NCBI GenBank assembly: GCA_000092065.1 | Contig: CP000582.1 | Strand: one strand, 5' to 3' | Origin: Ostreococcus lucimarinus | Taxonomy: Eukaryota | Length of the DNA: 64,000 nt | Shown here: in pieces, positions 12,048-59,108 of the stretch | How positions within the stretch are numbered: position 1 is the stretch's first letter | How the letters are laid out: each line of letters begins with the position of its first letter | Notes under the pieces: model-generated | What the model saw: the letters and a program-made list of their open reading frames with translations, nothing else | The model's database searches: none | Told to the model about the DNA's origin: nothing | Translations under genes and position numbers: made by a program

Positions 12048-12243
12048 GTGCGTCGCGATCTCGCGCGAGCGCGCGCGTCGGAAAACGCGACGCGACGCGA
12101 AGACCGCGCGCGATGGATCGTTCGCGTCGCGATCGCGGCGCGATGCGACGACGTTCGACGCGATGCCGCGCGCGCGGCGACGCGACGACGGCGAGCGGTG
12201 ACTGACGAACGCGCGCGATCATTTCGCTTCTTCGAACCCGCAG

Positions 12244-12298
12244 GCCGACGGCGACGAAGCGCCGCACGACGATCGTCCGCGCGGAGGGCGACGCCGCG
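12244..12298 (+). CDS. psaE: psaE exon 2 (transit peptide end, ...PTATKRRTTIVRAEGDAA).
   Basis: The acceptor cccgcag lies at 12241-12243, preceded by the branch site GTGACTGACGAAC at about 12198. The donor GCG|GTGCGTCTCGAG lies at 12299. The VRA|E stromal processing motif matches Chlamydomonas PsaE (VVRAEE). Confidence 0.7.
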
Positions 12299-12431
12299 GT
12301 GCGTCTCGAGATACGCGAGCGTATCGTGGATGCGACGCGTCGCGGTGATTCGACGTCTCGCGAGGCCGATCGCGACGCGCGCGACGAAGACGCGCGACTG
12401 ACGATGAAGAAAAATGTTTGGGACGACGCAG

Positions 12432-12482
12432 GAACCCGCGAAGGCGGCGCCGCCGGCGATCGGACCGCCGAGAGGCTCGAAG
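12432..12482 (+). CDS. psaE: psaE exon 3 (EPAKAAPPAIGPPRGSK).
   Basis: The acceptor gacgcag lies at 12429-12431 with the branch site GACTGACGATG at about 12397. The donor AAG|GTGCGCGCGG lies at 12483. The GP(K/P)RGS motif is conserved in PsaE. Confidence 0.75.
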
Positions 12483-12627
12483 GTGCGCGCGGGGAGACTT
12501 ATCGCGACGACGCGCGCGCGGTATCGCGGACGACGGCGACCGATCGGGACGGGAGAGGCGCGTTGGCGAGCGAAGGACTGTGACTGACGATGTGTGCGCG
12601 CGGTGTGCGGTTTGCGAATGGACGTAG

Positions 12628-12789
12628 GTTAAGATTTTGCGCCCGGAATCGTACTGGTTCAACGACTACGGCAAGGTCATCTCCGTCGATCAATCCGGCG
12701 TGCGGTACCCGGTTGTCGTTCGTTTCGAAAAGGTCAACTACGCGGGTGTTTCCACGAACAACTACGCGCTCGATGAGATCGAGTACTAA
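12628..12789 (+). CDS. psaE: psaE exon 4 ([53 protein letters not shown], then stop).
   Basis: Near-identical to the PsaE core, for example Chlamydomonas [51 protein letters not shown]. The acceptor acgtag lies at 12625-12627 with the branch site GACTGACGATG about 40 nt upstream. The six-frame track did not list this exon because it has no internal start codon. Confidence 0.85.
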
Positions 12790-13096
12790 GTGGGCACCTC
12801 GTGGGTGAAACCGAGAACGGCTGGCGCGAGCGATCGTCGCGGCGAGCGCGCCTCGCAAGGCGCGCTCGGCGGCGCGACTTCGTTCGCGGGCGCGCCGTTC
12901 GAGGCGCAATAGACAAATAGCACACGCAACAATTCGAGAGATCGAGGTTTATAATGACGCATCTCACGATATAACGACGCATCGATCGATCACGCGCCGT
13001 CTGCTCGCTCGCGCGCGATCCGCGTCGTCTCCGCGCCGCGCCGAACACCCGTCCCTCTCGCGCGCGCGACTTCCGCACTCGCGCGCGCGACGCGCG

Positions 13097-15832: not shown

Positions 15833-16165
15833 CACACCATCATAGCTTAGCCCTTCAACAGCGACGTCACGACGTCCTCGCGCGCCGAATTCCTTCGCGT
15901 CGCGCTCGGCGGTTGAAACGCGCGCCCGACGCCAACCCTCGGTCAAGCTGTAGGATCGCTTTTCGGCGACGTCAAACGCGCGCGCGCCGCGAGGAAGCGC
16001 GCGTCTCGCGCCCATCGACGCGAAACCCTCCATTGTCGCCATCACCGCGCGCGCGCGTTCTCGCGGCGCGTCGTCGACGCGCGCGCGCCGTCCGAGTCGC
16101 CGAAAAGCGATCGCCGCCGCCGGTGCAGACGCGCGCGGTCGCGCCTAAAACGCGCGTCGAACGCC

Positions 16166-19100
16166 ATGCCGACGTTCCGGGACGACATGGCGGGGTCATC
16201 GCACGACACCGCGGCGATTGATTTCACGAAGACGCCGTTCGCGCCGGCGTCGACGCCGAGAAAGATTAGCGCGGTGCGGTTTTCGCTGATGAGCTCGAGC
16301 GAAATCGGACGCGCGGGGGTGTTTCACGTGTTCGAACGGAATTTGTATCAGATGCCGCAGCGAACGCCGATGCCGAACGGGATATTAGATCCGAGAATGG
16401 GGACGACGGATAAGCGCGGTGGGGAGTGCGCGACGTGTCGAGGGAACATGGTGGATTGCGCGGGGCACTTTGGGTACATCAAGCTGGAGCTGCCGGTGTT
16501 TCACATCGGATACTTTAAAAACATCATCAGCGTGTTGCAGTGCGTGTGCAAGAATTGCTCGCGGATTTTACTGAACGAGGATGATCAAGATATGTTTTTG
16601 AAGCGCTATCGGAATCCAAGACTTGAGATTACGCAGAGGCGTCTGCTGTACAAAAAGTTGACGGAAAAGTGCAAACGATGCCGAACGTGTCCGCATTGCG
16701 GAGATTACAACGGCGTGACCAAGCGTGCGGGGCAGACTTTGAAGATCGTTCACGAAAAGTATAGTAAAAACCCAGCGTTGTTGGAGGAGTTTATGAAGGA
16801 GTTTGAAACAGCTTTGAAGTACAACGAGCAGCTTCGAGCGTCACTGCCAAAGGTGCAAGACGATTTGAATCCCATTCGTGTGTTGGGCATATTACAGCGC
16901 GTCACTTCGGCCGATTGCGAATTACTAGACATCGCAGATCGACCGGAACACTTGCTCTTGACGCACCTGCCCGTTCCGCCGTGTTGCATCAGGCCTTCGG
17001 TGGAGATGGACGGCGTGTCAGGGTCAAACGAAGACGATATCACGATGAAGCTCATACAAATCATCGAAGTCAACAATGTTTTGCGGCAAGGCTTAGAGAA
17101 AGGGCTCGCTGTTAACAATATGATGGAGAATTGGGATTTTTTACAGATTCAATGCGCCATGTACATCAACAGCGAGCTTCCCGGTTTATCTCTGCAGTAC
17201 CAGGGCCCTGGTAAGCCGCTGCGCGGCTTTGTGCAAAGACTCAAGGGTAAGCAAGGGCGCTTCCGCGGTAACCTCAGCGGTAAGCGCGTAGACTTCAGTG
17301 CGCGCACTGTGATCTCACCAGATCCGAATCTTCGGATCGACGAGGTTGGTGTACCAATACATATAGCGAAGACAATGACATACCCAGAAGTCGTCAACAA
17401 ACACAACATGGTGATGCTGAGAGAGCGCGTGCGCAATGGTATGGCGAAGCATCCTGGAGCGAACTTTGTCAAGTTTGCGTCTGGTGGTATGCAGTACTTG
17501 AAGTACGGCGATCGTCGCAAGATTGCCAGCGAGTTGAAATTCGGAGACATTGTTGAGCGACATTTGCACGACGGCGACATTCTGTTGTTCAATCGTCAGC
17601 CGAGTTTACACAAGATGTCAATCATGGCGCACAAGGCACGTATCATGGAGTGCCGAACTCTACGTTTTAACGAGTGCGTGTGTACGCCGTACAACGCCGA
17701 TTTCGACGGTGACGAGATGAATATTCATTGCCCTCAAACGGAAGAAGCGCGCGCCGAAGCGATGCAACTTATGGGAGTGCAACACAACCTGTGCACACCG
17801 AAAAACGGCGAGATTCTCATCGCAGCGACGCAGGACTTCCTAACTGCAGCGTTTCTTCTCACCATTAAGGATGCGTTTTTTGATCGCTCTCAGTTTGGCT
17901 CGCTCGTCGCGTACATGGGTGATGCGCTCCTTTCCGTGGATCTTCCGACGCCAGCAATCTTGAAACCCATTGAGCTGTGGACTGGAAAGCAAGTGTTCAG
18001 CGTTCTCATTCGACCGAAAGCGTCCGATCACATATATGTTAATCTTGAAGTCGCTGAAAAGCTGTACAACAAGAAGGACAAAACAATGTGTCCCGACGAC
18101 GGGTACGTGTGCATTCAGAATAGTGAAATAATCTCAGGGCAACTCGGCAAGGCGACACTCGGTAGTGGAAATAAAAGTGGACTATTCTACGTGCTCAACA
18201 TAGAATACGGCGCCGAAGCCGCCGCAAATGCGATGAATAGACTCGCCAAGCTGAGCGCTCGATGGCTGGGTACGCGCGGGTTTAGCATTGGCATCGACGA
18301 CGTCTCACCGGCCGCGGAGTTGTCAGCCGAAAAGGGCCGACGTATCGAGGACGGCTACAGAACTTGCGACGAACGAATCGCTTCGTATGAGAAAGGTACT
18401 TTACCTCTTCAAGCGGGCTGCAACGCGGAGGAAACGTTGGAGGCTGAAGTTCTCGGGGTCTTGTCTGCGGTGCGCGAAGCCGCGGGGAACGCGTGTTTAA
18501 AGGCGCTGCCGCGTCGCAACGCACCACTTATCATGGCTCTTTGCGGCAGTAAGGGTAGCACGATCAACATTTCTCAGATGATCGCGTGTGTTGGTCAACA
18601 AGCTGTGGGAGGCTCGCGACCTCCTGACGGTTTCGCCGAGCGATCGCTCCCGCATTTCAGGCGCGGAGAAAAGACACCCGCCGCAAAGGGCTTTGTCGCC
18701 AACTCTTTCTTTTCTGGCATGCGACCGACGGAATTCTTCTTCCATACCATGGCTGGTCGTGAAGGTCTCGTCGATACTGCCGTAAAGACTGCAGAGACTG
18801 GATACATGTCTCGTCGTCTCATGAAGGCGCTAGAGGACCTATCGCTTCAGTACGACGGCACTGTGCGCAACTCGATGGGTGGCATTGTGCAGCTGCGCTA
18901 CGGCGACGACGGCATGGAACCGACTATGATGGAGAGTGAAGACGCCCAACCGATCGAGTTTAAGCGGTGTTTGATGAATGTGCGAGGTCTGAACTCGGCA
19001 CGAGGCGAACCGCCAGCGACTCGCTCGGCGTTAGATGCGGCGCTGGACCAGTTCAAGCGAAACAACAGAATTATCAATGTCGACGAAGAAGGCGAAAGCG

Positions 19101-20446
19101 CCGAGACGCGCGAACTCGTGTACAGCGCTGGTATCTCGCAATTATTCTACGAAAACATGAGAACATTCATCATCAACGAAGTGGAGTCGCCTTCGGATGG
19201 CGTATACATGTCGGATCGACAGATGAAGGCATTTTTGGACGCGTGCGCGCGAAAATACACTGAAAAACGAATTGAGCCCGGCACCGCAGTTGGCGCCATT
19301 GGCGCACAATCCATCGGCGAGCCAGGCACACAAATGACGCTGAAGACGTTCCATTTCGCCGGTGTGGCGTCGATGAACATCACCCTCGGCGTTCCTCGAA
19401 TTAAGGAAATCATCAACGCGTCCAAGAATATCAGTACGCCAATCATCACGGCGTCGCTCATGAGCGACAGGGACGTCAAGGCGGCGCGCGTGGTGAAGGG
19501 TAGAGTGGAGAAGACGACGTTGGGCGAAATCTGTTCCGAAATCAATATTGTCGTTCGTCCGCACGATCTTTACCTCGAGCTTATGTTAGATATGGAGGCG
19601 ATCAATCAACTTCAGTTGGACGTCACCATTCACTCCGTGCGCCTGGCTGTGCTCGGGGCGCCAAAGCTCAAGCTCAAGCCTCAACACGTGCTCATCGCCG
19701 GCGAGAATATCTTGCATGTCTTACCCTCGGAAGAAGCACTGATAGAAAAACGCGCGTTGTTCACTCTGCAGCACATGCGACTGGCCATTCCCGCCGTCAT
19801 CGTGCAAGGCATCCCATCCGTCGGTCGAGCCGTCATCAACGACAAGGGCGACGGAACGTACAACCTCATCGTGGAAGGCGTGAACTTGCAGTCCGTCATG
19901 GGTATCGAGGGCATCAAGGGAACAGAGACACGAACAAACCATGTCATGGAGTGTGAACGCACGCTAGGCATCGAAGCGGCGCGCGCGTGCATCATTGAAG
20001 AGATTGACAGCACGATGGGCGCTCACGGCATGTCAATCGACAACCGACACTCGATGTTGCTCGCCGACGTCATGACGTACAAGGGCGAGGTTCTCGGGAT
20101 CACGCGTTTCGGCATGGCAAAGATGAAAGACTCTGTACTCATGTTGGCTTCGTTCGAGAAAACTACGGATCATCTGTTCGACGCAGCGCTGCACGGGCGC
20201 ACGGATTACATCGACGGCGTCTCCGAGTGCATCATCATGGGCATTCCAATGCCCATCGGCACGGGGATGTTCCGCTTGCAGCACCGCGCGATGAAACTCG
20301 AAGTTGACATCAACTTGGTAGAAGAAGACGGAAGAGAAACGTTGATGACGACTGTCACCCCCGAACAACGCGAAGAATTGCCGAAAAGACCGCCCTTGCT
20401 CTTGCAAGGCGGATACTGCAAACCATGCAGACCTATCGAAGCTTAA
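16166..20446 (+). CDS. RPC1: DNA-directed RNA polymerase III largest subunit (RPC1 / POLR3A).
   Basis: 1426 aa with no CTD heptads. Conserved clamp and active-site regions are present, including NADFDGDEMNIH, the Pol III-specific ...RSLPHFRRGEKTPAAKGFVANSFFSGMRPTEFFFHTMAGREGLVDTAVKTAETGY, and the zinc ribbon CATCRGNMVDCAGHFG. Confidence 0.9.
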   Translation: MPTFRDDMAGSSHDTAAIDFTKTPFAPASTPRKISAVRFSLMSSSEIGRAGVFHVFERNLYQMPQRTPMPNGILDPRMGTTDKRGGECATCRGNMVDCAGHFGYIKLELPVFHIGYFKNIISVLQCVCKNCSRILLNEDDQDMFLKRYRNPRLEITQRRLLYKKLTEKCKRCRTCPHCGDYNGVTKRAGQTLKIVHEKYSKNPALLEEFMKEFETALKYNEQLRASLPKVQDDLNPIRVLGILQRVTSADCELLDIADRPEHLLLTHLPVPPCCIRPSVEMDGVSGSNEDDITMKLIQIIEVNNVLRQGLEKGLAVNNMMENWDFLQIQCAMYINSELPGLSLQYQGPGKPLRGFVQRLKGKQGRFRGNLSGKRVDFSARTVISPDPNLRIDEVGVPIHIAKTMTYPEVVNKHNMVMLRERVRNGMAKHPGANFVKFASGGMQYLKYGDRRKIASELKFGDIVERHLHDGDILLFNRQPSLHKMSIMAHKARIMECRTLRFNECVCTPYNADFDGDEMNIHCPQTEEARAEAMQLMGVQHNLCTPKNGEILIAATQDFLTAAFLLTIKDAFFDRSQFGSLVAYMGDALLSVDLPTPAILKPIELWTGKQVFSVLIRPKASDHIYVNLEVAEKLYNKKDKTMCPDDGYVCIQNSEIISGQLGKATLGSGNKSGLFYVLNIEYGAEAAANAMNRLAKLSARWLGTRGFSIGIDDVSPAAELSAEKGRRIEDGYRTCDERIASYEKGTLPLQAGCNAEETLEAEVLGVLSAVREAAGNACLKALPRRNAPLIMALCGSKGSTINISQMIACVGQQAVGGSRPPDGFAERSLPHFRRGEKTPAAKGFVANSFFSGMRPTEFFFHTMAGREGLVDTAVKTAETGYMSRRLMKALEDLSLQYDGTVRNSMGGIVQLRYGDDGMEPTMMESEDAQPIEFKRCLMNVRGLNSARGEPPATRSALDAALDQFKRNNRIINVDEEGESAETRELVYSAGISQLFYENMRTFIINEVESPSDGVYMSDRQMKAFLDACARKYTEKRIEPGTAVGAIGAQSIGEPGTQMTLKTFHFAGVASMNITLGVPRIKEIINASKNISTPIITASLMSDRDVKAARVVKGRVEKTTLGEICSEINIVVRPHDLYLELMLDMEAINQLQLDVTIHSVRLAVLGAPKLKLKPQHVLIAGENILHVLPSEEALIEKRALFTLQHMRLAIPAVIVQGIPSVGRAVINDKGDGTYNLIVEGVNLQSVMGIEGIKGTETRTNHVMECERTLGIEAARACIIEEIDSTMGAHGMSIDNRHSMLLADVMTYKGEVLGITRFGMAKMKDSVLMLASFEKTTDHLFDAALHGRTDYIDGVSECIIMGIPMPIGTGMFRLQHRAMKLEVDINLVEEDGRETLMTTVTPEQREELPKRPPLLLQGGYCKPCRPIEA

Positions 20447-20519
20447 TACGTTGCGGTCCGCTCGAAATTTTAGAAATTTTAGTAGAATAGACGGATTTTT
20501 ACAATTCAATTCGAGGGCG

Positions 20520-21953: not shown

Positions 21954-22016
21954 AGTTGTGAAGTCGCGGCGTCGAGCCGCGGCGAGCGCGAGAGTTACAA
22001 ACTCGGGGAAAAGTCG

Positions 22017-24017: not shown

Positions 24018-24072
24018 GCGCGACGATGTGTCGCGATGGGCCGACGGTTCGCGACGTCACTTCGCGCCCGTC

Positions 24073-24291
24073 ATGCGCGCCGCCGCCGCGCTCGCGTCTC
24101 GCGCGTCGCGATTCGCGCGATCGAACGCCCGAGCGCCCGGCGCGCGCGCGCGAGGGCGCGCGCGATCGACGGTGGCGCGAGAGACGCGCGCGAACGGGAA
24201 AGCGGCTGAGCTCGCGCCGCTGGAACAGCGCGTCGACCTGCGCGTGGGGAGAGTGCTGAGCGCGAAGCGACACGAGGACGCGGAGAAATTG
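24073..24291 (+). CDS. tRNA-binding (EMAP-II/Arc1p C-terminal, Myf-domain) protein, exon 1. It holds a presequence and the start of the OB-fold (...RVDLRVGRVLSAKRHEDAEKL).
   Basis: ATG at 24073 (MRAAAALASRASRF...); an alternative ATG lies at 24016. The donor TTG|GTGCGTGGGG lies at 24292. Confidence 0.65.
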
Positions 24292-24397
24292 GTGCGTGGG
24301 GTCGATCGCGGCGCGCGCGCGGGCGCGGACGCGGAGGCGGGGATGGGAGGACGGCGGGACTGACGACGACGACGCTTTATCCGTTCGCGCGCCGCAG

Positions 24398-24520
24398 TAC
24401 ATCGAGGAGATCGATCTGGGCGAGCCCGAGGGGCCGAGGACGATTTTGAGCGGACTGGTGCCGTACATGTCGGCGGAGGACATCGAGGGGAAGAGCGTGA
24501 TCGTGTTTGCGAATCTGAAG
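24398..24520 (+). CDS. tRNA-binding protein exon 2 (YIEEIDLGEPEGPRTILSGLVPYMSAEDIEGKSVIVFANLK).
   Basis: The acceptor ccgcag lies at 24392-24397 after the branch site CTGACGACGACG and the tract ctttatccgttcgcgcgccgcag. The donor AAG|GTGCGAGG lies at 24521. The sequence aligns to the EMAP-II / MetRS C-domain motif VGEI.PRTVVSGLV.......NR.V.LLCNLKP. Confidence 0.8.
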
Positions 24521-24634
24521 GTGCGAGGACGCGAACGACGCGCGGCGAGCGAAGCGCGACGCGAACGCGAGACAAAGTTTGACGTTGATCGAACGCGCGA
24601 TGACTGACGAGACGCGAATGCGAACGCGACGCAG

Positions 24635-24946: not shown

Positions 24947-25097
24947 TCTCGCGCGCGCCCCGTCGCGCGCGCTCGACGCGCACGATTCATCCGTTAATAT
25001 TTATTCACGCCATTTATTAACGCGCGCTCGACACACCGCGTCGCGCTCGACCGACCCCGCGGCGTCGGTTGCGTCGCTTTACTTCGCGCCTCGCGCG

Positions 25098-25727: not shown

Positions 25728-25804
25728 ACTCGACGCGCGCGGCGACTCTGAGCGCGTAATTCGCGGTGTAACAACAAAACTTCTAGACGACGCGCGTTCG
25801 TCCC

Positions 25805-26023: not shown

Positions 26024-26115
26024 CTGTCCGTTCGCGCGCGAGTCGACGTCGTCAGTCACTCGTCGCGCGCCGCGCGCCCCGCGTCCGCGCGTCGCTCGTC
26101 GCGCGCCGCGCGCAC

Positions 26116-30089: not shown

Positions 30090-30439
30090 TCACCCCGTCC
30101 CGCCTCCGAACGTCGACGTCTCCCGCTCGCTCGCTCGCCCGTTCGCCAGCGTCTCTCGCTCGGCGTCGCGCAGCTCGCGTTCGCTCGGCACGTTCGCGCC
30201 GAACAGCTTCCGCCACGCGCGTCCCGCGCGCTCGGCGTCCTCGCGCGTCAGCGGCGACGTCCCATTCGCGTCTCCCTCGCCCGTCTCCGCGCGCGCGCGC
30301 GCCGCCCGTCGCTCGGGCGCGGGTAATCCCTCGCGCTGCGCGCGCTTCACCGCGAAGCACTCCCACAGGTCGCTCCATTTCTCGTCGCACGCGTCGAGCT
30401 CGCCGTGTCTGTAGTACCGACTCAACTGAAACATCGGAT
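30090..30439 (-). CDS. Small Cx9C-motif protein, exon 2 (DPMFQLSRYYRHGELDACDEKWSDLWECFAVKRAQREGLP..., then stop).
   Basis: ORF with a single C-x9-C (CDEKWSDLWEC). The acceptor gacgcag sits 5 nt upstream of the listed ATG (30434), with the branch site GAGACTGACGACG. Confidence 0.45.
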
Positions 30440-30505
30440 CTGCGTCGCGTCGCGCGCGTCGTCAGTCTCGCGCCGCGCGATTCGGCGCGGTCGTTCGAGG
30501 CGCAC

Positions 30506-30572
30506 CGTAGCACGTCCAGACGCGCTCGACGGCCTCGGCGACGGTCTCGGGCGGGAGATCCGCGCGCGTCAT
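30506..30572 (-). CDS. Small Cx9C-motif protein, putative exon 1 (MTRADLPPETVAEAVERVWTCY + 1 nt).
   Basis: Its ATG lies at 30570-30572. The donor ACG|GTGCGCC lies at 30505. The 66-nt intron 30440..30505 has a full branch/acceptor signature. The splice keeps frame into exon 2. Confidence 0.35.
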
Positions 30573-30680
30573 GGCGAGGCTCGGAGTGCCGCGCGCCGTC
30601 ACAGCGCGACGCGTCGACGGCGAATCGCGCGCGGCGATCGACGCCGTGCGCGCGGTGAGAGACGCGCGGGCGACGCGGCG

Positions 30681-32597
30681 ATGCGCGTCGACGCGGCGCG
30701 CGCGCGCGCGGCGACGCGCGCGGACGCGATGGCGTCGAGGTGCCGACTCGGACGACGCCCGGAGGGTTCGCGCGGTGCGACGACGCGCGCGCGGCGCGCG
30801 CGGCGCGCGAGATGGGTCGAGTGCGCGGTGACGGACCCGCCGGTGACGCGCGAGGCGGTCAGGACGTCGGACGTGGAGCTGTTCGAGGGGAAGAAGCGAT
30901 TGCAGACGCAGGCGACGGCGCTCGGCGAGGGCACCACGCTGATACGGTCGCTCGATTGGGATCGCGATCGGTTCGACATCGAGTTTGGGTTGGAAAAAGG
31001 GACGACGTATAACTCGTACATCATTCGCGGCGCGCCCGGGACGGCGGCGCTGATCGACGCGAGTCACGAAAAGTTTCGGGAGTTGTACATGAAGACGCTG
31101 ACTGGAGAAATCGACCCGCTGGAGATCAAGTACGTGGTGTGCTCGCACACCGAACCCGATCACTCGGGATTGATCGGAGACGTGCTGAAGATTGCGCCGA
31201 ATGCGACGGTGCTCGGGAGTAAGGTGTGCTTGGCGTTCTTGGAGAATTTGATTCACGAGCCGTTCGAGTCGAGGGTGGTCAAGGGGGGCGACGTCGTGGA
31301 TTTGGGCGACGGACACGAGCTGAAGTTTATCATGGCGCCCAACTTGCATTGGCCGGATACGATGTTCACATACGATCCGAAGTCACGATTGATGTACACG
31401 TGCGACGCGTTCGGGTCGCATTATTGCAGTGAGGACCCGTTCGACGGGGACTTGAGCGCGTTGATGCCGCACTATCGTTTCTACTACGAGTGTTTGATGA
31501 AACCGAACGCTCGATCGGTGCTCACGGCGCTTCGCAAGTGCGAGTCCGAAGGCGCAGATTTTGTGGGCATTTGTAACGGCCACGGACCGTTGCTGCGGTA
31601 CAACGTGGACGAACTCGTGGGGGATTACAAGAAATGGAGCGAGAGCGCGTTGGCCAAGGCCAAGGCAAACGTGGCGGTATTTTACACCGCCGAGTACGGT
31701 TTCAGCGATCGACTTTCGCAGTCCATCGCGCGCGGGTTGACGAAGACCGAAACAGAGGTTGTCATGATGGATTTATTGTCCGCAGATTCTCAAGAACTCG
31801 TCGAAACGACGAAGCACGCGGCTGGCATCGTCTTGCTTTCGCCGCCGCGCGCCGGTCCAGCCAACGAGCAGCTCGCCAACATCATCGGCGCCGTGGACGC
31901 CAAGCAAAAGTTCTTCATCGCGGAATCGTATGGTGGTGAAGACGAGCCCGTGGACTTGTTGGCGAAGAAACTCGCCGAGCTCGGCGTTACCGAGGCTTTT
32001 TCGCCCCTCAAGGTGACGAGCGACCCGACCGAGGGCACGTATCAATTGTTCGAAGAGGCTGGCACCGATTTGGGTCAACTTTTGACGAAGAAGAAGACAC
32101 TGGCGGACATGAAGAGCGCCATGTCACCTGACGTCGCCAAGGCGCTCGGTCGTGTCAGTGGAGGCTTGTACGTCGTCACCGCCGCGCAGGGCACCGCGCG
32201 TTCGGCGATGATCGCGTCTTGGGTCGCCCAAGCCTCGTTCGAACCTCTCGGTTTTACCGTCGCGGTGGCGAAAGATCGCGCCATTGAATCACTGATGCAA
32301 GTCAACGACACGTTTGTCCTGAATTGCCTTCCCGAGAACGGCTTCGAACCGTTAATGAAGCACTTTCTGACGCGATTCCCACCCGGCGCCGACCGCTTCG
32401 AGGGCGTGGAGTGGGCGCCTGCCAACTGCGGCGCGCCCATCCTCGGCGACGCCGTGGCGTTCATGGAGTGCCGAGTGGTGTCTCGAATGGAAGCCAACGA
32501 TCACTGGATCGTGTACAGCGAAGTTTTCAACGGTAAGGTGTTCAACCAAGACGTACGAACGGCGTCCCATCATCGCAAAGTCGGCTCTTACTACTGA
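30681..32597 (+). CDS. FLVB: Class-C flavodiiron protein (metallo-beta-lactamase-like + flavodoxin + C-terminal flavin reductase domains), FLVB-like, with a plastid transit peptide.
   Basis: The canonical diiron ligand motif CSHTEPDHSG is present, with a flavodoxin-like region and a C-terminal flavin-reductase domain ending HHRKVGSYY. The ORF-track start at 30405 is GTG; candidate ATGs lie at 30681 and 30729. TGTAA lies 20 nt after the stop. Confidence 0.85.
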   Translation: MRVDAARARAATRADAMASRCRLGRRPEGSRGATTRARRARRARWVECAVTDPPVTREAVRTSDVELFEGKKRLQTQATALGEGTTLIRSLDWDRDRFDIEFGLEKGTTYNSYIIRGAPGTAALIDASHEKFRELYMKTLTGEIDPLEIKYVVCSHTEPDHSGLIGDVLKIAPNATVLGSKVCLAFLENLIHEPFESRVVKGGDVVDLGDGHELKFIMAPNLHWPDTMFTYDPKSRLMYTCDAFGSHYCSEDPFDGDLSALMPHYRFYYECLMKPNARSVLTALRKCESEGADFVGICNGHGPLLRYNVDELVGDYKKWSESALAKAKANVAVFYTAEYGFSDRLSQSIARGLTKTETEVVMMDLLSADSQELVETTKHAAGIVLLSPPRAGPANEQLANIIGAVDAKQKFFIAESYGGEDEPVDLLAKKLAELGVTEAFSPLKVTSDPTEGTYQLFEEAGTDLGQLLTKKKTLADMKSAMSPDVAKALGRVSGGLYVVTAAQGTARSAMIASWVAQASFEPLGFTVAVAKDRAIESLMQVNDTFVLNCLPENGFEPLMKHFLTRFPPGADRFEGVEWAPANCGAPILGDAVAFMECRVVSRMEANDHWIVYSEVFNGKVFNQDVRTASHHRKVGSYY

Positions 32598-35263: not shown

Positions 35264-35435
35264 CTGCATCGTTCACAAACCACACACTCGTCAATCTCGC
35301 GTCGTCGTCGCGTCGCCGGCCGCCGTCGCGCCGTCGCGAATCGCGTTCGCGTCGTTCGCGCGTCTCGGGTTTGAATCGCCTCGCCGCGCGCCGCGCGTTT
35401 CCGCGCCCGCGCGCGTCTCTCGCCCTCGCGCGCAC

Positions 35436-37813: not shown

Positions 37814-38333
37814 CTATCGCGACGGCGCGCCGACGCGCGCTCGACGACGGCGCTCGCGCGCTCTGCGCGTCTTCGTGTGCGCCAGCGCGACGCCCTCGCC
37901 CTCGAGCCACTCGACGAACACCGCGCGACTCGCCCGCACGCCCGCGACTCGCGCGCGCGCCAGCGCGTCGTCGACGTCGACGCCGCGCGTCAGCAGCGCG
38001 CGCTCGTACGTCTCGTCGTCGGCGCGAAGCCACGCCGCGAGCGCGTTCGCGACCTCGGAATCCGTCGCCGCGCGTCGCGTCGCGCGTCGCGTCGCGCTCG
38101 ATCGCGCGTCTCCCGTCGTCGCGGCGTCGCGGCCGCGCTTTAATCGCTCGCGAAGCGGTGGAATCTCGCTCTCGGACGCGTCGTCGCCGTCGCGCCGAGC
38201 GTCGAGCGCCGAGCGCGGTCCGTCGTCGTCGTCGTCGTCGTCGTCGCTCGTCGACGCGTCGCCGCTCGCGCGTCGATCGGCGAGAATTCGAGCGAACGCC
38301 TCGCGCACGCGCGCGCCGCCCTCGCGCTCGTCC
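37814..38333 (-). CDS. Small acidic protein, exon 2 (RDEREGGARVREAFARILADRRASGD..poly-D..., then stop).
   Basis: The acceptor CGCGCAG lies at about 38336-38334, after the branch site GACTGACGACG. The exon joins in frame to the ORF listed as 37814..38308. Stop at 37814-37816. Confidence 0.45.
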
Positions 38334-38360
38334 CTGCGCGCGACGCGTCGTCAGTCGTCG

Positions 38361-38390
38361 CGAACCGAACCGAACCGAACCGAACCGAAT
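38361..38390. repeat. (CGAAC)n pentanucleotide microsatellite, about 5.5 units.
   Basis: The sequence cgaaccgaaccgaaccgaaccgaaccgaat is seen directly. It lies inside the putative minus-strand intron. Confidence 0.85.
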
Positions 38391-38417
38391 CGTCGCGCGC
38401 GCGCTCGCCGCGCGCAC

Positions 38418-38564: not shown

Positions 38565-40718
38565 ATGCGCGCCGCGACGCGCGCCGCGACGCGCGGTGAC
38601 GCGACGCGATGCGCGACGCGACGCGCGCGCGATGTCGCGCGTCGACGGCGCGCGACGGCGCGACGCGCGCTCGAGACGGGACGCGAGGAGACGCGCGCGG
38701 CGGATTCGAAGCGCGCGCGCGACGCGCTGTTCGCGGCGAACGACGGCGCGCGCGACGGCGACGACGGCGACGATCGCGTCGCGACGCGCGATGACGTCGT
38801 CGGCGGGGTGGCGATGGTGTCGTTCGCGACGCGCGCGCGACGGACGTTCGAGGTGGAGTACGGCGCGCGGCGAGGGACGACGGAGAACGCGTACGCGACG
38901 CGAGGCGAAAAGGATGCGTGCCTGATCGATTGCGTCGACGGGAGACACGCGGAGGGGTACGCGCGCGAGATCGAGGGGCTGGGGGCGTGGGCGCGCGACG
39001 CGGCGTATCACGCGGTGCTGCACGTGAGTCCGCGGCGGTTGGACGCGCTCGCGGCGGCGATCGCGAACAGGAGCGAGGGCGCGGCGTGCGTGGAGGTGCT
39101 GTGCTCGAATCCGGGGGCGCAGTTGATTCAACAGGCGCTGAAACCGAATAGTCCTCTGACGAATGAAGCGCTGTGTGCGGCGTGGAAGGGGACGGATGGG
39201 AAACTGAGGGCGCGGTTGCGCGTCGTGCGCAACGGCGAGCGGTTGGATTTGGGCGGGCGGACTTTGAGATTTACGCTCGCGCCCACGCCGCGTTGGCCGG
39301 ATTTGATCTTCGCGCGCGATGAGAAGTCGCAAACTCTGTTTACATCGAAGTTTTTCTCCGCACACGTCGGCACGATGGAAGGATACGGCGATGAGGGCGG
39401 GTTGGAGACGTTCGGGGAGGATTGGAGGTTTTACTTTGACTGCCTCCTCGCGCCGATGGCGAGGCAAGTGTCGCCTTTGCTCGAGAAGCTTACCGTGAAA
39501 GAAGAGAACGCGTACGACGAACGGATGGGACGACGGATGGAGGAGTGGGAAAAGAGCGGCGCGGTGAAAAAGGTTTTGCTGCGCGCGATGGGCAAGTCCA
39601 TGGCGGGGAAAACGAGCTCGCAAGCGTTCGAGGGCGTCGCGAAGACTATTTGCCCGGCGCACGGCCCGGTCGTCGCGTCCTCGGTCACGGAGCTGTATCG
39701 AGAGTACGTAGAGTGGTGCAAAATGCAAACTTCCGCTGGGGATAACTTGTCCGTGGCCGTCATCTACGCCAGTGCGTACGGGAACACCGGCGCGATGGCG
39801 CAAGCCATCGCGCGAGGCGTCGCCAAGACAGGCGTCGGCGCGGAAATGTTCAACTGCGAGCTCGCGTCACCGATCGAAGTGGAAGAAGTGTTGAAACGTA
39901 GCGCGGGGTTCGCCCTCGGTGCACCGACGCTCGGTGGCACTTTACCGACGCCCGTGCAGACCGCACTCGGGGCGATCGTGAAGGAGGGCGATTTGGAGAA
40001 GCCGTGCGGCTCCTTTGGATCCTTTGGCTGGTCTGGCGAAGCGGTGGCGATGATCGACAAACGCTTGACAGACGCGGGCTTTAAAAGTGCGTTCGAGCCG
40101 TTGCGGTGTAAATTCAAACCTACCGCCGAGACGCTGCAGCTTTGTGAAGAGAGCGGGACGGATCTCGCGCAAGCGGTGCGCAAGATCGAGCGCCGCAAAC
40201 AAGTGCTCGAGCGTAAATCCGTCGGCCAAGCCGCGGACGGCGTCAGTGACACCGCCGCCGCCGTCGGGCGCATCGTCGGCTCGCTATGCGCGGTGACGAC
40301 GAAGAACGAAGACACGCAAAGTGCCATGTTAGCGTCTTGGGTATCTCAAGCGAGCTTCAATCCGCCGGCGCTCACCGTCGCCGTCGCCAAGGAGCGCGCC
40401 GTCGAGAGTTTCCTCATGACCGGCGGCAAGTTCAACCTCAACGTCCTCAAGTCCGGCGGCGAAAAGGACGTCATGAAGGCCCTACTCAAACCGTTCGCTC
40501 CCGGTGAGAACCGTTTCGGCGCGCTCGACGTAGACATCTCCGAAACCAACGGCTGCGCCGTGGTGAAACAGGCCCTCGCGTGCGTCGAGTGCACCGTCAC
40601 GAAGCGAATGGAGGCCGGCGACCACTGGGTCGTCCTCGCCGAAGTCGAGCGCGGGACTCTCTTAGACGCCGAAGGCGTGACGAGCATCCACCACAGAAAG
40701 ACTGGTAGTTCTTATTAA
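38565..40718 (+). CDS. FLVA: Class-C flavodiiron protein, FLVA-like (non-canonical diiron site), with an N-terminal transit peptide.
   Basis: The FDP core starts near VAMVSFATRARRTFEVEYGARRGTTENAYATRGEKDACLIDC. The ligand region reads DCVDGRHAEGYA, deviating from H-x-E-x-D-H. A flavodoxin-like region and a C-terminal flavin reductase domain are present, ending HHRKTGSSY. The start ATG is uncertain: 38565 is preferred, and 38487 would overlap the divergent small-protein exon. The ORF-track start at 37875 is GTG. Confidence 0.8.
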   Translation: MRAATRAATRGDATRCATRRARDVARRRRATARRALETGREETRAADSKRARDALFAANDGARDGDDGDDRVATRDDVVGGVAMVSFATRARRTFEVEYGARRGTTENAYATRGEKDACLIDCVDGRHAEGYAREIEGLGAWARDAAYHAVLHVSPRRLDALAAAIANRSEGAACVEVLCSNPGAQLIQQALKPNSPLTNEALCAAWKGTDGKLRARLRVVRNGERLDLGGRTLRFTLAPTPRWPDLIFARDEKSQTLFTSKFFSAHVGTMEGYGDEGGLETFGEDWRFYFDCLLAPMARQVSPLLEKLTVKEENAYDERMGRRMEEWEKSGAVKKVLLRAMGKSMAGKTSSQAFEGVAKTICPAHGPVVASSVTELYREYVEWCKMQTSAGDNLSVAVIYASAYGNTGAMAQAIARGVAKTGVGAEMFNCELASPIEVEEVLKRSAGFALGAPTLGGTLPTPVQTALGAIVKEGDLEKPCGSFGSFGWSGEAVAMIDKRLTDAGFKSAFEPLRCKFKPTAETLQLCEESGTDLAQAVRKIERRKQVLERKSVGQAADGVSDTAAAVGRIVGSLCAVTTKNEDTQSAMLASWVSQASFNPPALTVAVAKERAVESFLMTGGKFNLNVLKSGGEKDVMKALLKPFAPGENRFGALDVDISETNGCAVVKQALACVECTVTKRMEAGDHWVVLAEVERGTLLDAEGVTSIHHRKTGSSY

Positions 40719-43436: not shown

Positions 43437-43608
43437 CTGTTCGGCGCGAATCGAGAATCATCCGAGGTCAGTCTCGCCACGTCAGCATCCGCGTCAGCAT
43501 CCGCGAATCGCCGACCCGCGCCATCGATCCCGCGCCCGCGCGCGCGCGCCCCCCCGCCCCTCCGTCCCGCGAACGATTCACAAAAAACCCACGCCGCTCA
43601 AAACGTAC

Positions 43609-47522: not shown

Positions 47523-47670
47523 ATTAGCCATTAGTTAGCAGCACCCGTAGCCATTATAGATGACAATTGTCATAGAAACGTAGCAAACGCGACCGTCGAC
47601 GCCGTCGAGCCGCACTCGTCGTCGCGCCGTCGACCGCACGGCGTCGACACCGCGCCAATCTCGCGACAGG

Positions 47671-48279: not shown

Positions 48280-48408
48280 GTGGTCCGCCGCCGTCACGAA
48301 TCGCGCAAACGCGAATGCGAATTGATAGCTCACAATGCAATAGAAATTAGCGCTAGGATACAACTGATACAACGTTTCGCGCTCTAGAGCGCGCTCACTT
48401 CTCGTGCG

Positions 48409-49467: not shown

Positions 49468-49475
49468 CGCGCGCG

Positions 49476-50852: not shown

Positions 50853-50863
50853 CGCATGACACT

Positions 50864-50911
50864 CACGTTCATTACCACATTTGATTTCACGTTCATTACC
50901 ACATTTGATTT
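50864..50911. repeat. Perfect 24-nt tandem duplication (cacgttcattaccacatttgattt x2) in the convergent 3' intergenic region.
   Basis: Seen directly between the chorismate synthase stop (50852) and the PUF gene stop (50939). Confidence 0.85.
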
Positions 50912-50938
50912 CTATTATATCAGCTATTGATAACCCAG

Positions 50939-52975: not shown

Positions 52976-53049
52976 CGCGCGCCGTCGCGCGATGCCGCCG
53001 CGCGACGCCGCGCGCGCGGACGCGCGCCGGCGGCGCGATGGCCGACGCG

Positions 53050-53120
53050 CGATCGATCGATCGCGGACGCGCGACGTCGATCGATCGCGCGTCGATCGAC
53101 GCGCGATCGTCGATCGACGT
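53050..53120. promoter_or_regulatory. Cluster of palindromic CGATCGATCG / TCGATCGA motifs in the divergent promoter between the PUF gene and the NDH-2 gene.
   Basis: At least six copies of tcgatcga / cgatcg lie within about 70 nt (gatcgatcgatcgcggacgcgcgacgtcgatcgatcgcgcgtcgatcgacgcgcgatcgtcgatcgacg). Confidence 0.4.
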
Positions 53121-53379
53121 CGCGCGCGCTTCGAGTGTCCGAACGCGCGCGCGACGCCGTCCGCGCGATCGCAGATGGACGAAACAGCGCGCATAGTACG
53201 ACGCGATGGCGAATAAACGATGGCGCATAAACGATGCGCGCGGCACCCTCGCACACGCGGGTTTTTCACGAGGGGGGCTCCCGCGCCGCGGCAAAGCACG
53301 CCGCGGCGTCGCACGCCGACGCGCGCGCGCGACGCGCACGGCGACGCGCGACGCGCGACTCGAATTCGTCGCGCTCGCG

Positions 53380-55149: not shown

Positions 55150-55340
55150 ACAGTCAAGCTTCGCATCAATAGCATTTAAGCGAAGTGATTTAAGCCGCTC
55201 ACTACAGCATCATACTGTACTCGTGTTGAAATGAAATCTCATCGTACTTCACGCGTCGCTCGCCGCTAACTTGTTTTTTTAGAAAGATGGTTGGAAAAGA
55301 TGTTTGGTTTCTTATTACTGTAGCCAACGACATAAATGTC

Positions 55341-58300
55341 TCATGCGGCCGCACGGCGCGATCGTCGCGGCGGACTTGTCGGTGGCGTCGCAACCTTGGG
55401 TAAATCGGGCGCAACGTTTTCTTGCTCATCGGAAGTCTTGCTGTCTGTTCGGACAATTTCCGATGGAATTTCCTCGTCGTTGTCCACTGTTTGAGGTTTT
55501 TCCTCGCTAGGTTCTTCTTCCTCTTTCTTAATTTCTGCAACAACAGTCTCTTCTTTACCCTCAGCTCGCGCCGACACGTTGTATGCTGCCGCTCGTTCGA
55601 CGTGCGCGTCGTTAAGCCTAGTCTCGAAAGCCTCCACAAACTGTTTTGCTTCGGGCTTTGCCGCGCGCTTCTGCTTGTGACACATCGCGATGAAGCACGC
55701 ATGTACTTCGTGATCATACAAGGCAGCATCGTACTGCTTCCAACTCTCTGTGAACTTCTTGAAAGCACGCTCGCTGAGGTTGAGTTGCGAGATGCAAAAG
55801 GCGATATCGCGCGCAGGTTTCGGTGTTTCAGCCAAACACGCCTCGGCAAATCTCGCGCACATCTTTTCGCATATTGCTTCAGCCTGACGCTCCTTGTCAA
55901 TGAACCCGACGAGACGAGTCATGATGCGCTTGAAAGCGTCCGGAGAAATATCTTCGTCGGAGGACAGCCTAGACAATAAATCTGTCAGCAAGTTGTAAAT
56001 CGGATTACCGTGCTTCTGAGAGAGTTCGTGGAAGAACAGCTTTGCCACGCCGGCGACTCGGGGGTCGACATCCTCCAGACATCGAGCCATCTCGCTGATA
56101 TGACCCTTGACTTTCATCATATCGTTCAAAACCAAATGGGACAACATCGTGATGGCGTGTTGTCGAACGCTTGCGTCGGTGTCGTGCAACGAGTTGCCCC
56201 ATTCCTTGATACCGTACAAGTGTTCAGTCCACGGCTCGACGGCGTTGGGGAATCGGAACGCCAGATCACCAAGGGCGACAAGAAGCGCGGAGCGAGTACC
56301 CTTGTCGGACTCGACTTTGAGACGAGTAAAGATCAATTTGAGATGATCCTCGCAGAATTTGGCGTCCAAAACCATGAAGCGCGTAAGCGCGGCGAGCGCA
56401 GCGCCGCGCAAAAGTTCGGGCCCTTGCACCACTGCTGGGTGAGAGCAAAGCTGCACGACAAATGGAGCATATATGGCGACGAGCCCACGCGCAGCGCCCT
56501 TTTTCGTGGCGAGAAGCTCAGCTTCGGCCTTTTCTCGAGTGGCGTCTAACAAGAGATCCTCTGCGACGGCACCTTCGCCCATGGCGGCGGCGAGATCGTT
56601 GTCACCCGAGTCACCTTTTTCCTTTGCCTCGGCCGCCTCGCGGTCACGAACGACTCTGGCTTGACGAACGGAGCGCGCGAGCTTTTCGATGTGTACCAAG
56701 TGTTTCAGTGAAACCTCGCCGAGAACGAACAAGAACCGTGCCAACACAGCAGTAGGTATTTTGTCCATAGAGTTGCCATTGAACGTAGCAACGGCGAACG
56801 CCTTGATGACTTCCGAAGACGCATGCTCAGGGTCGGGATGGAGCGAATAGAGAGCCGAAATCGCTTGTTCGGCGGATGGAAACCACGCGCGACCCGCGAG
56901 CGGAGCGGCCGGATGAAGCACCTTGGCAAGCTCAGCGAATACCGGGTGGCTGAGCTCCAAAGGCTCGCCATCCTTTCCTCGGACCACCGTGAGCGCGCAG
57001 CACGCGGCTCGGCACAGTGTTGGAGATTTCTTTTCGCCCGATAGCGCAGCCTCGATCGCGGCGCACACAGTTCCGAGATGTCCCCGCACGATTTCAGGAC
57101 TCGTACGAGCGCACATCGTGAGTACATTAAGCGCCGCGGCCTTGCGGTTATTCGAACATTCATCACTCGATACATTTGACCACAAAGTCTTCATCACCGC
57201 GCCAGTCGGCGGCAATCGACCCGATAAGACGAGCGCCTTCAGGACATCTTCAAGCGACGCTAGTTCACCTAGTGCGGCTGTGGCAGCGAGTTCGCTCAAG
57301 CCCGCTGCTGCGAGCATCGGGCTCTCGGCGTTCGAAAGATACAACACATCCACAGCTTCGACAACGGCGTCTTTGATGGCTTGATCGCGAGAGAAGATGA
57401 GGCCGAGCAATCGTCGAACACCTTCGGTAGAACCATCGACATTAAATTGACGCATGCGAACGAGTAAGCCAATAGCTTCGGTGACGTCGGAGGCGACAGA
57501 GGAAGTGAGGAGATTGCTCAAGTTTGCCACCGTGCCAGAGAGTTGCACCGTGAACCCGAGGGCGGTTTTCAGCGCCGCAACCATGGTGCGAACTGCTTCG
57601 AGACCGCCATTGAGATGGATTGCGGCGTTCGCATCGCCTTCTTGTTGTTTCGGAGGTTCCTGCGATCCGTCCTCGGTGTTCGATTCTTTGCCTTCGGCGC
57701 TCTCCTCGGGCGTTTCTTCTTCGGGCGGAGTCATCGACGCGAGCTTGGCTTCGTAATCCTTCAACGATTCAGCAAACGTCGCGCTCGGAAGTTGCGGAGC
57801 GAAAGGGTTGAACCCCAAAAGCGATGCAAGTAGACCCATAGCCGCCTTGCGCACGAGTGCGCCCTTGTCGTGCAGTCGCCCGATTGCGAGGTCCGTGACG
57901 ACGAGCCAGTGCGACAACGGAATCGCCTTGGCTTCAGCCATGGTCGCCCACGTGTTCAATACTCGTGCTCGCGTAAACGCACTCGTATCGTGTACACGCT
58001 CGACGAGTAGATCTAAGAACCCTTGTTTCGTGCGTAGAAGTGGCGCAGTGCTGTTGTCGTGATGATCGCTCACCGCAACGACATCCTTCTGCGAAATCAA
58101 GAGGTGTCCCAATACAGAGACTATCGCAGAACGCAAAGAGTACGCTTCGCCATCCAAATGAGGCATGAGCACGGACATGTTCGTCATCGTCGTCTTTGGC
58201 ATACGTTCTGCGATTTCACTGAGGAAAGCACCGACACAACGCACGCCGACAGCGTCGCTGGCTTGCTGCAGCTTGTAATCATGAGGATCGACGCGCCCAA

Positions 58301-58965
58301 CCTCGCGAATAAGTGCCGCCGCGAGGTGCGCGTTTTCAAATCTATCAGCCGCCGCGCTCGCGAGTTCCGCGATTGGGCCGGACAAATGCTCGCACTTGTT
58401 CAGTAGATGAATCAACGCTGTGGTTACTTGCTCGAGCTGGCCCCACTTGAGCGCACAAGAGCCCATCATTTCAAACGCCGCGCGCTTCGTCACTTTGCTC
58501 TTCAACGCCGCGGGATTTTCGAGCAACATCGACCCGAGACGCACAAACAACCTCAAGAAGTCCTCCTCGGGCTGCTTCGGACGGAATACCTGCCACAAAT
58601 CGATGTCCAAGGCACCAGCCATGACGTGCACGATGCGCTCACGCTGTTCGTCCCACGCCCACTCCGCCAACTTTGCCTTATTCGTCTGCTTCTTCTTCCC
58701 CTTGGCGCCAGGCGCGGGCTTTTGCGCGCACGCCATCGCGGCGCACTCCTTCGATTCTTTTTCGCACACCTCGCACACGTGGAATATAAACGTTGCGTAC
58801 GCCTTCAACGCCTGTCGATACCCAAACATCGTCTCCGCGTGCGCCTCATCCGCGCTCGCGCCGCTCACCACCGCCGCCGTCACGCTCGCGCTCAACACGC
58901 TCAAATTCGAACACAACGCATCGATCAAGCGCATGCGTTCGATCGGCGTCAACTCGATGAAATCT
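55341..58965 (-). CDS. Condensin complex subunit 1 (CAP-D2/Cnd1 family), main exon.
   Basis: HEAT-repeat protein. The conserved Cnd1 C-domain is LVALGDLAFRFPNAVEPWTEHLYGIKEWGNSLHDTDASVRQHAITMLSHLVLNDMMKVKGHISEMARCLEDVDPRVAGVAKLFFHELSQKHGNPIYNLL (human NCAPD2: ...GDLAIRFPNLVDPWTPHLYARLRDPAQQVRKTAGLVMTHLILKDMVKVKGQVSEMA...). Confidence 0.85.
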
Positions 58966-59108
58966 CTGCGTTCGCGCACCATCGTCAGTCTCCGACCGCG
59001 CCCTCATCGTTTCGTCGCGCGCTCGCGCGGGCGCGCTTCGCTCGCCCCGGAATCAAAGTTCGTTGAAAACGGCCCACGCGTCGCATCGTATTCCTTCGCT
59101 CCGCGCAC

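Follow-up and report, generated by a model that had tools for sequence, protein, structure and literature searches.

Strongly shared splice signals in eleven candidate introns of an Ostreococcus lucimarinus genome segment

Why are the splice signals of introns in a GC-rich alga nearly the same from gene to gene? The question is raised by a stretch of 64,000 nt from contig CP000582.1 of Ostreococcus lucimarinus (assembly GCA_000092065.1; hereafter the window). For it, the original prediction had proposed one uniform intron signature, ascribed either to a recent common origin, such as introner-like proliferation, or to very strict splice-site constraint. The signature is already known: it was published in 2008 for this exact genome (Irimia & Roy 2008, PLoS Genet 4:e1000148; PMC2483917). 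In O. lucimarinus introns that are confirmed by ESTs and lie outside chromosome 2, ACTGAC was found in 87% and GACTGACG in 66.5%; the 5' splice site consensus of the same set is GTGCGTG (4.8 bits), CGCAG is favoured at the 3' end, and branch-to-AG distances form a broad peak at approximately 20–35 bp (PMC2483917). Because of this earlier description, the signature has little discovery value. Set against Chlamydomonas, the signature can fairly be called unusual in a GC-rich alga, but it is a documented hallmark of Ostreococcus and not new. What we add to the 2008 paper is the conservation of the introns at orthologous positions and a check against the snRNAs of Ostreococcus tauri. We conclude, with a probability of about 0.93, that the introns are ordinary U2-type (GT-AG) introns, independent and old, whose signals are strictly constrained in a genome with few introns. 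By their signals and length, we assign them to the 'rest-of-genome' class described in 2008.

Introns of the window

The host is O. lucimarinus CCE9901: the RPC1 ORF of the window is identical at 1384/1384 positions to XP_001416093.1 of this strain. A total of 11 introns, 66–196 nt long, were found in 8 genes of the window, which contains about 33 genes. All of them lie on the coding strand, have GT-AG ends and regain the reading frame on removal. Splicing of the 11 intervals is inferred from frame restoration, continuity of Pfam matches, intronless orthologs and conserved exon–intron structure; for psaE introns 1 and 2 and for the KE-rich and UBA-like introns, the sole basis of the predicted splicing is cross-species conservation. 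The shared signature was confirmed at the places where it had been reported, and all 11 introns named there are real candidates. The accompanying count of at least 13 was not borne out: the introns listed for it sum to 11, and none further was found. In the following description, the branch site is GACTGACGA and the acceptor is CAG except where another is given, distances give the separation of the branch A and the intron's 3' end, and L numbers denote the sequences with which the genes were compared.

The psaE gene (plus strand) contained three introns. Intron 1 (12048..12243; 196 nt, phase 2; donor caa/GTGCGT; distance 38 nt) leaves the transit peptide in frame once spliced out; its counterparts at that codon measure 312 nt in L005 (donor GTACGT) and 261 nt in L004. 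Removal of intron 2 (12299..12431; 133 nt; donor gcg/GTGCGT; distance 30 nt) also restores the frame, and orthologous introns of 179 nt and 278 nt are present in L005 and L004, respectively. Intron 3 (12483..12627; 145 nt, phase 0; donor aag/GTGCGCGCGG; acceptor TAG; distance 40 nt) was present in L005 and missing from L003 and L004; its junction, between residues 54 and 55, is crossed by the Pfam PSI_PsaE match (residues 51–106, E=7.5e-33).

In the gene for a tRNA-binding-domain protein (plus strand), the coding sequence of which starts with the ATG at 24073, two introns were found: intron 1 (24292..24397; 106 nt; donor ttg/GTGCGT; distance 34 nt) and intron 2 (24521..24634; 114 nt; donor aag/GTGCGA; distance 27 nt). 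The Pfam tRNA_bind match runs unbroken over both junctions (profile positions 1–95 of 96). Both introns had orthologs in L003, L005 and L007; those of intron 2 were a GC-AG intron in L003, an intron with an ACTAAC branch in L005 and one with a GATTGAC branch in L007.

The remaining introns lie on the minus strand. Splicing of the FAM32A-like gene intron (26024..26115; 92 nt; donor aag/GTGCGCGCGG; distance 28 nt) restores the frame, with a weak Pfam FAM32A match over the junction (E=0.039, below the cut-off); orthologous introns were present in L005 and L007, while the L003 gene lacks one. The junction of the Cx9C / PANTS-like gene intron (30440..30505; 66 nt; donor acg/GTGCGC; distance 22 nt), between residues 22 and 23, falls inside a Pfam PANTS-like match (residues 11–60, E=2.4e-12), and orthologous introns were found in L014, L016, L020 and L023. 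The intron of the MLK / casein-kinase-like (DUF7477) gene (35264..35435; 172 nt; donor aag/GTGCGCGCGA; branch site GATTGACGA; distance 27 nt) likewise restores the frame. The same site (..APVPEK/xQVGG..) was occupied in all Ostreococcus lineages examined and in Bathycoccus-like and Micromonas-like contigs.

If the 'UBA-like' gene intron (38334..38417; 84 nt; donor tcg/GTGCGCGCGG; distance 17 nt) is read through, translation runs into a stop codon in frame. The protein has weak Pfam support; L016, L020, L023 and L026 share its exon 1 peptide (..IARAYG..ALL..GFER) and carry an intron at this position. The intron of the KE-rich protein gene (43437..43608; 172 nt, phase 0; donor gcg/GTACGT; branch site GACTGACC; distance 31 nt) was located by direct reading of the sequence, and both exons, with an intron between them, were kept in L014, L016, L020, L023 and L026. 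Two extra CTGACG copies lie immediately upstream of its branch site. Finally, splicing of the intron in the gene for condensin subunit 1 (Cnd1/CAP-D2; 58966..59108; 143 nt, phase 2; donor cag/GTGCGC; distance 19 nt) yields an N-terminus that aligns without a gap at the junction (..ALCR/DFIE..) to orthologs with uninterrupted ORFs; L089, L090 and L091 carried an intron at the same site.

Signals shared by the introns

Donor positions +1 to +5 were GTGCG in 10 of the 11 introns and GTACG in one. The expected uniform GTGCG(C/T) hexamer held for nine, the exceptions being intron 2 of the tRNA-binding gene (GTGCGA) and the KE-rich intron (GTACGT). At position +6, C was found in 6/11, T in 4/11 and A in one; the published consensus has T here, which is no substantive difference. 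G occupied position +7 in 7/11 and exon position -1 in 10/11. The branch motif was GACTGAC in ten introns and GATTGAC in one, followed by GA in 10, so that GAYTGAC was present in all 11, in agreement with the predicted CTGAC core with a single TTGAC. The extended variants ACTGAC, GACTGACG and GATTGACG were present in 10/11, 9/11 and 1/11, respectively. Acceptors were CAG as predicted in 10/11, with TAG in psaE intron 3; upstream of them, position -5 was C in 8/11 and position -4 was G in 9/11. Between the branch A and the end of the intron we measured 17–40 nt, which corrects the 20–42 nt given before. Our set thus agrees with that of Irimia & Roy 2008 in organism, donor, branch, CGCAG, distance and low intron density.

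The 9-mer GACTGACGA occurred nine times in the window against 0.81 expected, and all nine occurrences are predicted branch sites. ACTGACGA was observed 10 times against 2.8 expected; its tenth copy (60548-60555, minus strand) is coding sequence and not an intron. By contrast with these longer words, the GTGCGY hexamer by itself was not enriched in a scan of the window (207 observed, 195 expected), and the CTGAC pentamer by itself was depleted (67 observed, 91 expected); therefore, neither motif counts as evidence on its own, and diagnostic value belongs to the extended or combined signal only. A looser composite module gave 21 matches against 12 expected, half of them antisense or inside continuous ORFs, so a tighter module was adopted. 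It was found 12 times in the window against 1.8–3.8 in Markov simulations; 11 of these matches are the introns, and the other, at 17623 on the minus strand, is a chance match antisense to RPC1.

U12-type introns carry an [A/G]TATCCTT donor and an TCCTTAAC branch site 10–15 nt from the 3' end. Nothing resembling these signals was seen in the donors or branch sites (0/11), which rules out this type. Introns of the low-GC region of Ostreococcus chromosome 2 are abundant and 40–65 bp long, their GTRNGT donors are weak and a clear branch motif is lacking (PMC2483917); with lengths of 66–196 nt and strong signals, the window introns are not of this small outlier kind either. Outside algae, there is a likeness to hemiascomycete yeasts (GTATGT ... 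TACTAAC ... YAG), which are likewise intron-poor, with a near-invariant 5' hexamer and a branch box of 7–9 nt; in both groups, the consensus donor mismatches U1 at +4. The consensus sequences themselves differ: Ostreococcus has the wobble variant CTGAC as its branch core, with conserved G and GA on its two sides, and the window introns are short (66–196 nt) and very rich in GC and CpG.

Age and origin of the introns

All 11 introns were found at orthologous positions in other Ostreococcus lineages, where their lengths differ and their interiors cannot be aligned (mean z = 0.65 against shuffles). Among the first 25 orthologous introns tabulated, the donors were GTGCG (11), GTACG (9), GTAAG (2), GTGAG (2) and GCGCG (1), the branch cores CTGAC (22), TTGAC (2) and CTAAC (1), and the acceptors CAG (18) and TAG (7). 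The signals recur in this way at orthologous sites in at least four other Ostreococcus lineages, with interiors diverged beyond alignment, which supports the very strict splice-site constraint that was one of the two origins proposed. Judging from its occupied site in all three genera, the MLK intron is older than the Ostreococcus/Micromonas/Bathycoccus split.

The other proposed origin, in which the introns are recent copies of one mobile intron family and share their ends for that reason, has some points in its favour. The ends are very alike, and the 10-mer donor GTGCGCGCGG is identical in three introns (psaE intron 3, FAM32A-like and UBA-like; a fourth identical donor had been claimed, but that of MLK is GTGCGCGCGA). 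Introner elements do occur in related Micromonas species (PMC4540971), and the psaE intron 3, FAM32A-like and Cnd1 introns are each missing from one Ostreococcus lineage. However, GTGCGCGCGG is mostly a run of CG dinucleotides in a CpG-rich genome. The Micromonas elements (Worden 2009; Verhelst 2013; Simmons 2015), from the same order Mamiellales, are also sense-strand, spliceosomal and bounded by canonical splice sites, but sense orientation and GT-AG ends are true of any intron and so do not discriminate. Introner families are recognized by high similarity along their whole length and a presence/absence pattern of recent gain (PMC4540971), whereas the window introns share signals only and are orthologous across species; no pattern of recent gain was seen when the 11 introns were compared with other Ostreococcus lineages, and the three absences from single lineages may reflect either loss or gain. 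An all-against-all comparison of intron interiors within the window gave a mean local score of 12.96 against 11.40 for shuffled sequences and no full-length match. This comparison, of the kind suggested for detecting introner families, returned short CG-rich matches only; similarity was limited to such low-complexity sequence, and lengths ranged from 66 to 196 nt. Since the positions also predate the splits between species, and for MLK those between genera, we consider a recent common origin extremely unlikely. It is conceivable, though rather improbable, that the Cnd1, psaE intron 3 and FAM32A-like introns were gained with consensus signals already in place.

The uniformity could, alternatively, be an artefact of motif-led intron finding, with further introns in the window that lack the signature. 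The motif was indeed said to have made splicing predictable from the letters of the sequence, ACTGAC is absent from about 13% of the confirmed introns that lie outside chromosome 2 (PMC2483917), and the cross-species check covered coding regions of the window up to 45 kb and, beyond that, Cnd1. Against this, the window is accounted for by about 33 genes, whose ORFs are long and unbroken and carry Pfam domains, and the set includes two introns that depart from the motif (the GTACGT donor and the TAG acceptor). Conserved blocks beyond the exon models, in the part covered by other species, were edge extensions of at most 77 nt; this check used a strand-blind mask, raw per-strand tblastx output being swamped by off-frame and antisense HSPs. 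An artefact of this kind seems to us distinctly improbable.

Under the preferred reading of old, independent introns, purifying selection would hold each of the few introns (11 in about 33 genes) near one optimal set of signals. This set would comprise the 5' splice site G/GTGCG(Y)(G), the extended branch site GACTGACGA and the 3' end CGCAG, placed 17–40 nt past the branch A without a polypyrimidine tract. The sequence between the signals would drift freely, with the signals alone conserved.

Basis of the consensus and its significance

Co-evolution with the snRNAs was called 'worth exploring' by Irimia & Roy (PMC2483917): Ostreococcus U1 and U2 would have been altered to pair perfectly with GUGCGU and GACUGACGA, enforcing a consensus that is atypical by comparison with GTAAGT and CTRAY. 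An Rfam scan of the window matched no family and so revealed neither snRNA genes nor intronic snoRNAs there. In O. tauri, U1 starts with AUACUUACCUG, CUUUUAC forms the U5 loop, and GUGUAGUA and ACAGAGA occur in U2 and U6, respectively (PMC7671301, Supplementary File 2). The experimentally mapped RNAs of this species are thus canonical in the U1 5' end, the U2 GUGUAGUA element, U5 loop I and the U6 ACAGAGA box. Paired by hand with them, GUGCGU leaves a mismatch at +4, and the G and A flanking the branch core stay unpaired with U2. These canonical recognition sequences, taken from a congener of O. lucimarinus, indicate that the atypical consensus does not come from re-tuned U1 or U2, and we regard snRNA co-evolution as highly unlikely. 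The question left by the 2008 paper is thereby answered at least in O. tauri, where there is no compensatory change in U1 or U2.

Three conserved bases have no partner in canonical U2, U1 or U6: the G 5 nt upstream of the branch A, the A 3 nt downstream of it and the donor +4 C. Pairing therefore does not account for this particular consensus. The consensus would more likely stem from preferences of protein factors, or from low or stringent spliceosome activity. One specific form of this, which we offer tentatively and hold to be rather improbable, is that proteins peculiar to this lineage, such as an altered SF1/BBP or SF3b, read the branch site and the 5' splice site, or that the 3' end is recognized independently of U2AF. 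The +4 C, the G 5 nt upstream of the branch A and the GA that follows the core, along with the lack of a polypyrimidine tract, would be the traces of such a read-out.

The cross-species comparison cleanly shows selection on the signals only. In practical terms, these signals are strong enough for introns to be predicted and audited from sequence alone; a case in point is the public RPC1 gene model in the window, whose 3' intron lacks the signature and is contradicted by orthologs. A protein read-out, if true, might in addition account for the way a single spliceosome copes with two intron classes as different as those of this genome.

Introns of the Window and Their Splice Signals

Sequence reading and joining of open reading frames (ORFs) yielded 11 introns across eight genes in the window, which was gene-dense and had a G+C content of 60%. 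Three were located in psaE (12048-12243, 12299-12431, and 12483-12627) and two in the gene with a tRNA-binding domain (24292-24397 and 24521-24634; CDS start at 24073). The others, on the minus strand, interrupted a FAM32A-like gene (26115-26024), a Cx9C/PANTS-like gene (30505-30440), an MLK-type kinase gene (35435-35264), a 'UBA-like' gene (38417-38334), the gene of a KE-rich protein (43608-43437), and the gene of the condensin subunit Cnd1 (59108-58966). No further candidates were obtained by ORF joining in the window; the 'at least 13' introns of the original prediction were a miscount, its own list totaling 11. The label 'UBA-like' is doubtful because Pfam gave just a sub-threshold match to UBA_2 (E = 0.064). 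The conserved portion of this protein was its C-terminal half (37814-38333, minus strand; ..YERALL.R.VDVDDAL.RAR..G.R.SR..FV.WLE.EGV..), not the putative UBA region.

The introns were 66-196 nt long, and the shared signature claimed for them proved real, while several of its details were wrong, so the earlier observation was partly confirmed. The branch motif GA[C/T]TGAC was present in all 11 introns, with the CTGAC core in ten and TTGAC once, as claimed, and was directly followed by GA in ten. The donor (+1 to +5) was GTGCG in 10/11 introns and GTACG in one, with G at exon position -1 in 10/11; position +6 was C in six introns, T in four, and A in one. The proposed GTGCG(C/T) donor therefore held for most introns, but not for the GTACG donor or the one with A at +6. 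Ten introns ended with the predicted CAG, but the third psaE intron ended with TAG; acceptor positions -5 and -4 were C in 8/11 and G in 9/11, respectively. The presumed branch-point adenosine lay 17-40 nt from the 3' end, instead of the 20-42 nt before the acceptor given originally. There was no polypyrimidine tract in the 11 introns (44% pyrimidines from the branch site to the 3' end). Their sense strands (1423 nt in total) contained 42% G, 28% C, and 13% T, with a CpG observed/expected ratio of 2.05 versus 1.65 in the window.

These signals were already known. Irimia and Roy (2008, PMC2483917) analyzed the O. lucimarinus genome itself and, among 319 EST-confirmed introns outside chromosome 2, reported ACTGAC in 87%, GACTGACG in 66.5%, a preference for CGCAG at the 3' end, an 'atypical consensus GTGCGTG' of 4.8 bits at the 5' splice site, and a distance from branch point to AG of 'around 20-35 bp'. 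They contrasted the intron-rich part of chromosome 2, which has weak signals, with the rest of the genome and proposed that intron-poor genomes converge on strong signals. Since the same signals in the same genome match those of the window, the finding is a rediscovery, correct in substance.

Evidence for Splicing

Short single signals were not enriched in the window: GTGCGY occurred 207 times (195 ± 15 expected) and ACTGAC 19 times (17 expected). The CTGAC pentamer was under-represented on both strands (67 vs. 91 ± 9 in order-2 Markov simulations), which may come from cryptic branch sites being avoided or simply from codon usage. ACTGACGA was enriched (10 vs. 2.8 expected; none of 100 shuffles reached 10), as was GACTGACGA (9 vs. 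0.81), all nine copies of which were predicted branch sites. A composite module (GTRCG no more than 200 nt upstream of GAYTGAC, plus YAG 15-42 nt past the branch adenosine) was found 12 times; Markov simulations of orders 1, 2, and 3 gave means of 3.8, 2.6, and 1.8 and maxima of 10, 7, and 6, respectively. Eleven matches were the introns, and the remaining one was antisense to RPC1.

Several further lines point to the 11 intervals being introns. Pfam domains were unbroken over the junctions of the third psaE intron, both introns of the tRNA-binding-domain gene, and the PANTS-like gene; the match over the FAM32A junction was weak. The spliced Cnd1 N-terminus (..ALCR|DFIE..) aligned without a gap at the junction to four orthologs with uninterrupted ORFs. 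For all 11 introns, both flanking exons and the intervening intron were kept in other Ostreococcus lineages, whose protein-coding DNA showed ~74% identity to the window. Where these lineages covered the window, the only conserved blocks outside exon models were edge extensions of up to 77 nt, with no sign of missed exons or signature-less introns.

Neighboring Gene Models

The RNA polymerase III RPC1 ORF (16166-20446, plus strand, 1426 codons) fell in the same 90% identity cluster as the public model XP_001416093.1/ABO94385.1 of O. lucimarinus CCE9901 and was identical to it over 1384/1384 aligned residues. Logan contigs matched the DNA of the window at 100% identity, and the window is accordingly O. 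lucimarinus or a strain that cannot be told apart from it. The model (1395 aa) diverged past residue 1384, and its last 11 residues were encoded from 20516 onward, thus implying a 3' intron (region 20318-20515) with the donor GTAGAA and without the ACTGAC motif. This predicted intron looks spurious, since RPC1 orthologs of 1422-1423 aa keep the unspliced C-terminus (..TVTPE..ELPKRPPLLL..).

Two paralogous flavodiiron-type genes (metallo-beta-lactamase/flavodoxin/flavin-reductase domains) were located 6 kb apart on the plus strand (30405-32597 and ~38600-40718). Because the second gene's long ORF, which opens with GTG, overlapped the minus-strand 'UBA-like' gene, the second gene probably begins near 38600 instead. 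An uninterrupted 1493-codon ORF with four DUF285 repeats (59508-63989, minus strand) had a G+C content of ~50% versus ~60% for the remaining window; this may point to foreign origin, to fast evolution of the gene, or to a low-GC outlier region nearby.

Origin and Maintenance of the Signature

Two readings had been offered: introner-like proliferation and strict splice-site constraint. Introner elements are near-identical within a family, are sense-oriented and spliced, and show the presence/absence pattern of recent gain (PMC4540971); the introns of the window differ in sequence and in distribution. When intron interiors were compared in all pairs after signal removal, the mean local score was 12.96 versus 11.40 in shuffled controls. 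Blastn gave only CG-rich matches of 15-29 nt, also present in intergenic and coding DNA. All 11 introns occupied orthologous positions in other lineages, with differing lengths (196, 312, and 261 nt for the first psaE intron), and the MLK intron lay at an identical codon position in Ostreococcus-, Bathycoccus-, and Micromonas-like contigs. Within the reach of the window-level and cross-species comparisons, introner-like proliferation is thus refuted.

Strict constraint, in turn, was supported by 25 orthologous introns of other Ostreococcus lineages, which carried the same consensus and varied around it to an ordinary degree: GTGCG (11), GTACG (9), GTAAG (2), GTGAG (2), and GCGCG (1) donors; CTGAC (22), TTGAC (2), and CTAAC (1) branch cores; and CAG (18) and TAG (7) acceptors. 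Interiors of orthologous introns aligned no better than shuffled sequences (mean z = 0.65). Such a picture is to be expected of old introns in which selection acts only on the signals.

The sole interior similarity to stand out was that of the KE-rich intron with contig L023 (z = 5.5). This intron contained three tandem CTGAC motifs (43471-43501, minus strand; ..GATGCTGACGCGGATGCTGACGTGGCGAGACTGACC..), similarly laid out in other Ostreococcus lineages (contigs L014, L020, and L023), which may be redundant branch sites; Rfam gave no match for the segment. The third psaE and the FAM32A introns were absent in the L003/L004 lineage. The Cnd1 intron was lacking from P0188, P0190, P0192, and P0208, which represent the P0188 lineage and orthologs of Micromonas/Bathycoccus type; the KE-rich gene of the L026 lineage had two extra introns (860-1035 and 476-545). 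The ortholog of the second tRNA-binding intron in L003 (19970-20080) was an apparent GC-AG intron, aag|GCGCGT ... GACTGACAG ... TAG.

Whether the unusual consensus is matched by divergent snRNAs was a question that the 2008 study raised without settling it (PMC2483917). Experimental mapping of the snRNAs in the congener O. tauri followed later (PMC7671301, Supplementary File 2): U1 starts with AUACUUACCUG, U2 includes GUGUAGUA, U5 loop I is CUUUUAC, and U6 includes ACAGAGA. All four O. tauri recognition sequences are canonical. When base pairing with these snRNAs was worked out manually, G|GUGCGUG paired with U1 at -1, +1, +2, +5, and +6, with wobbles at +3 and +7 and a mismatch at +4. The core ACUG(A)C of GACUGACGA paired with U2 with one G-U wobble, leaving the conserved 5' G and 3' A unpaired. 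Pairing with snRNAs therefore does not account for the extra conservation. Its likeliest cause would be either read-out by proteins or a stringent or low activity of the spliceosome, the latter as proposed by Irimia and Roy (PMC2483917).
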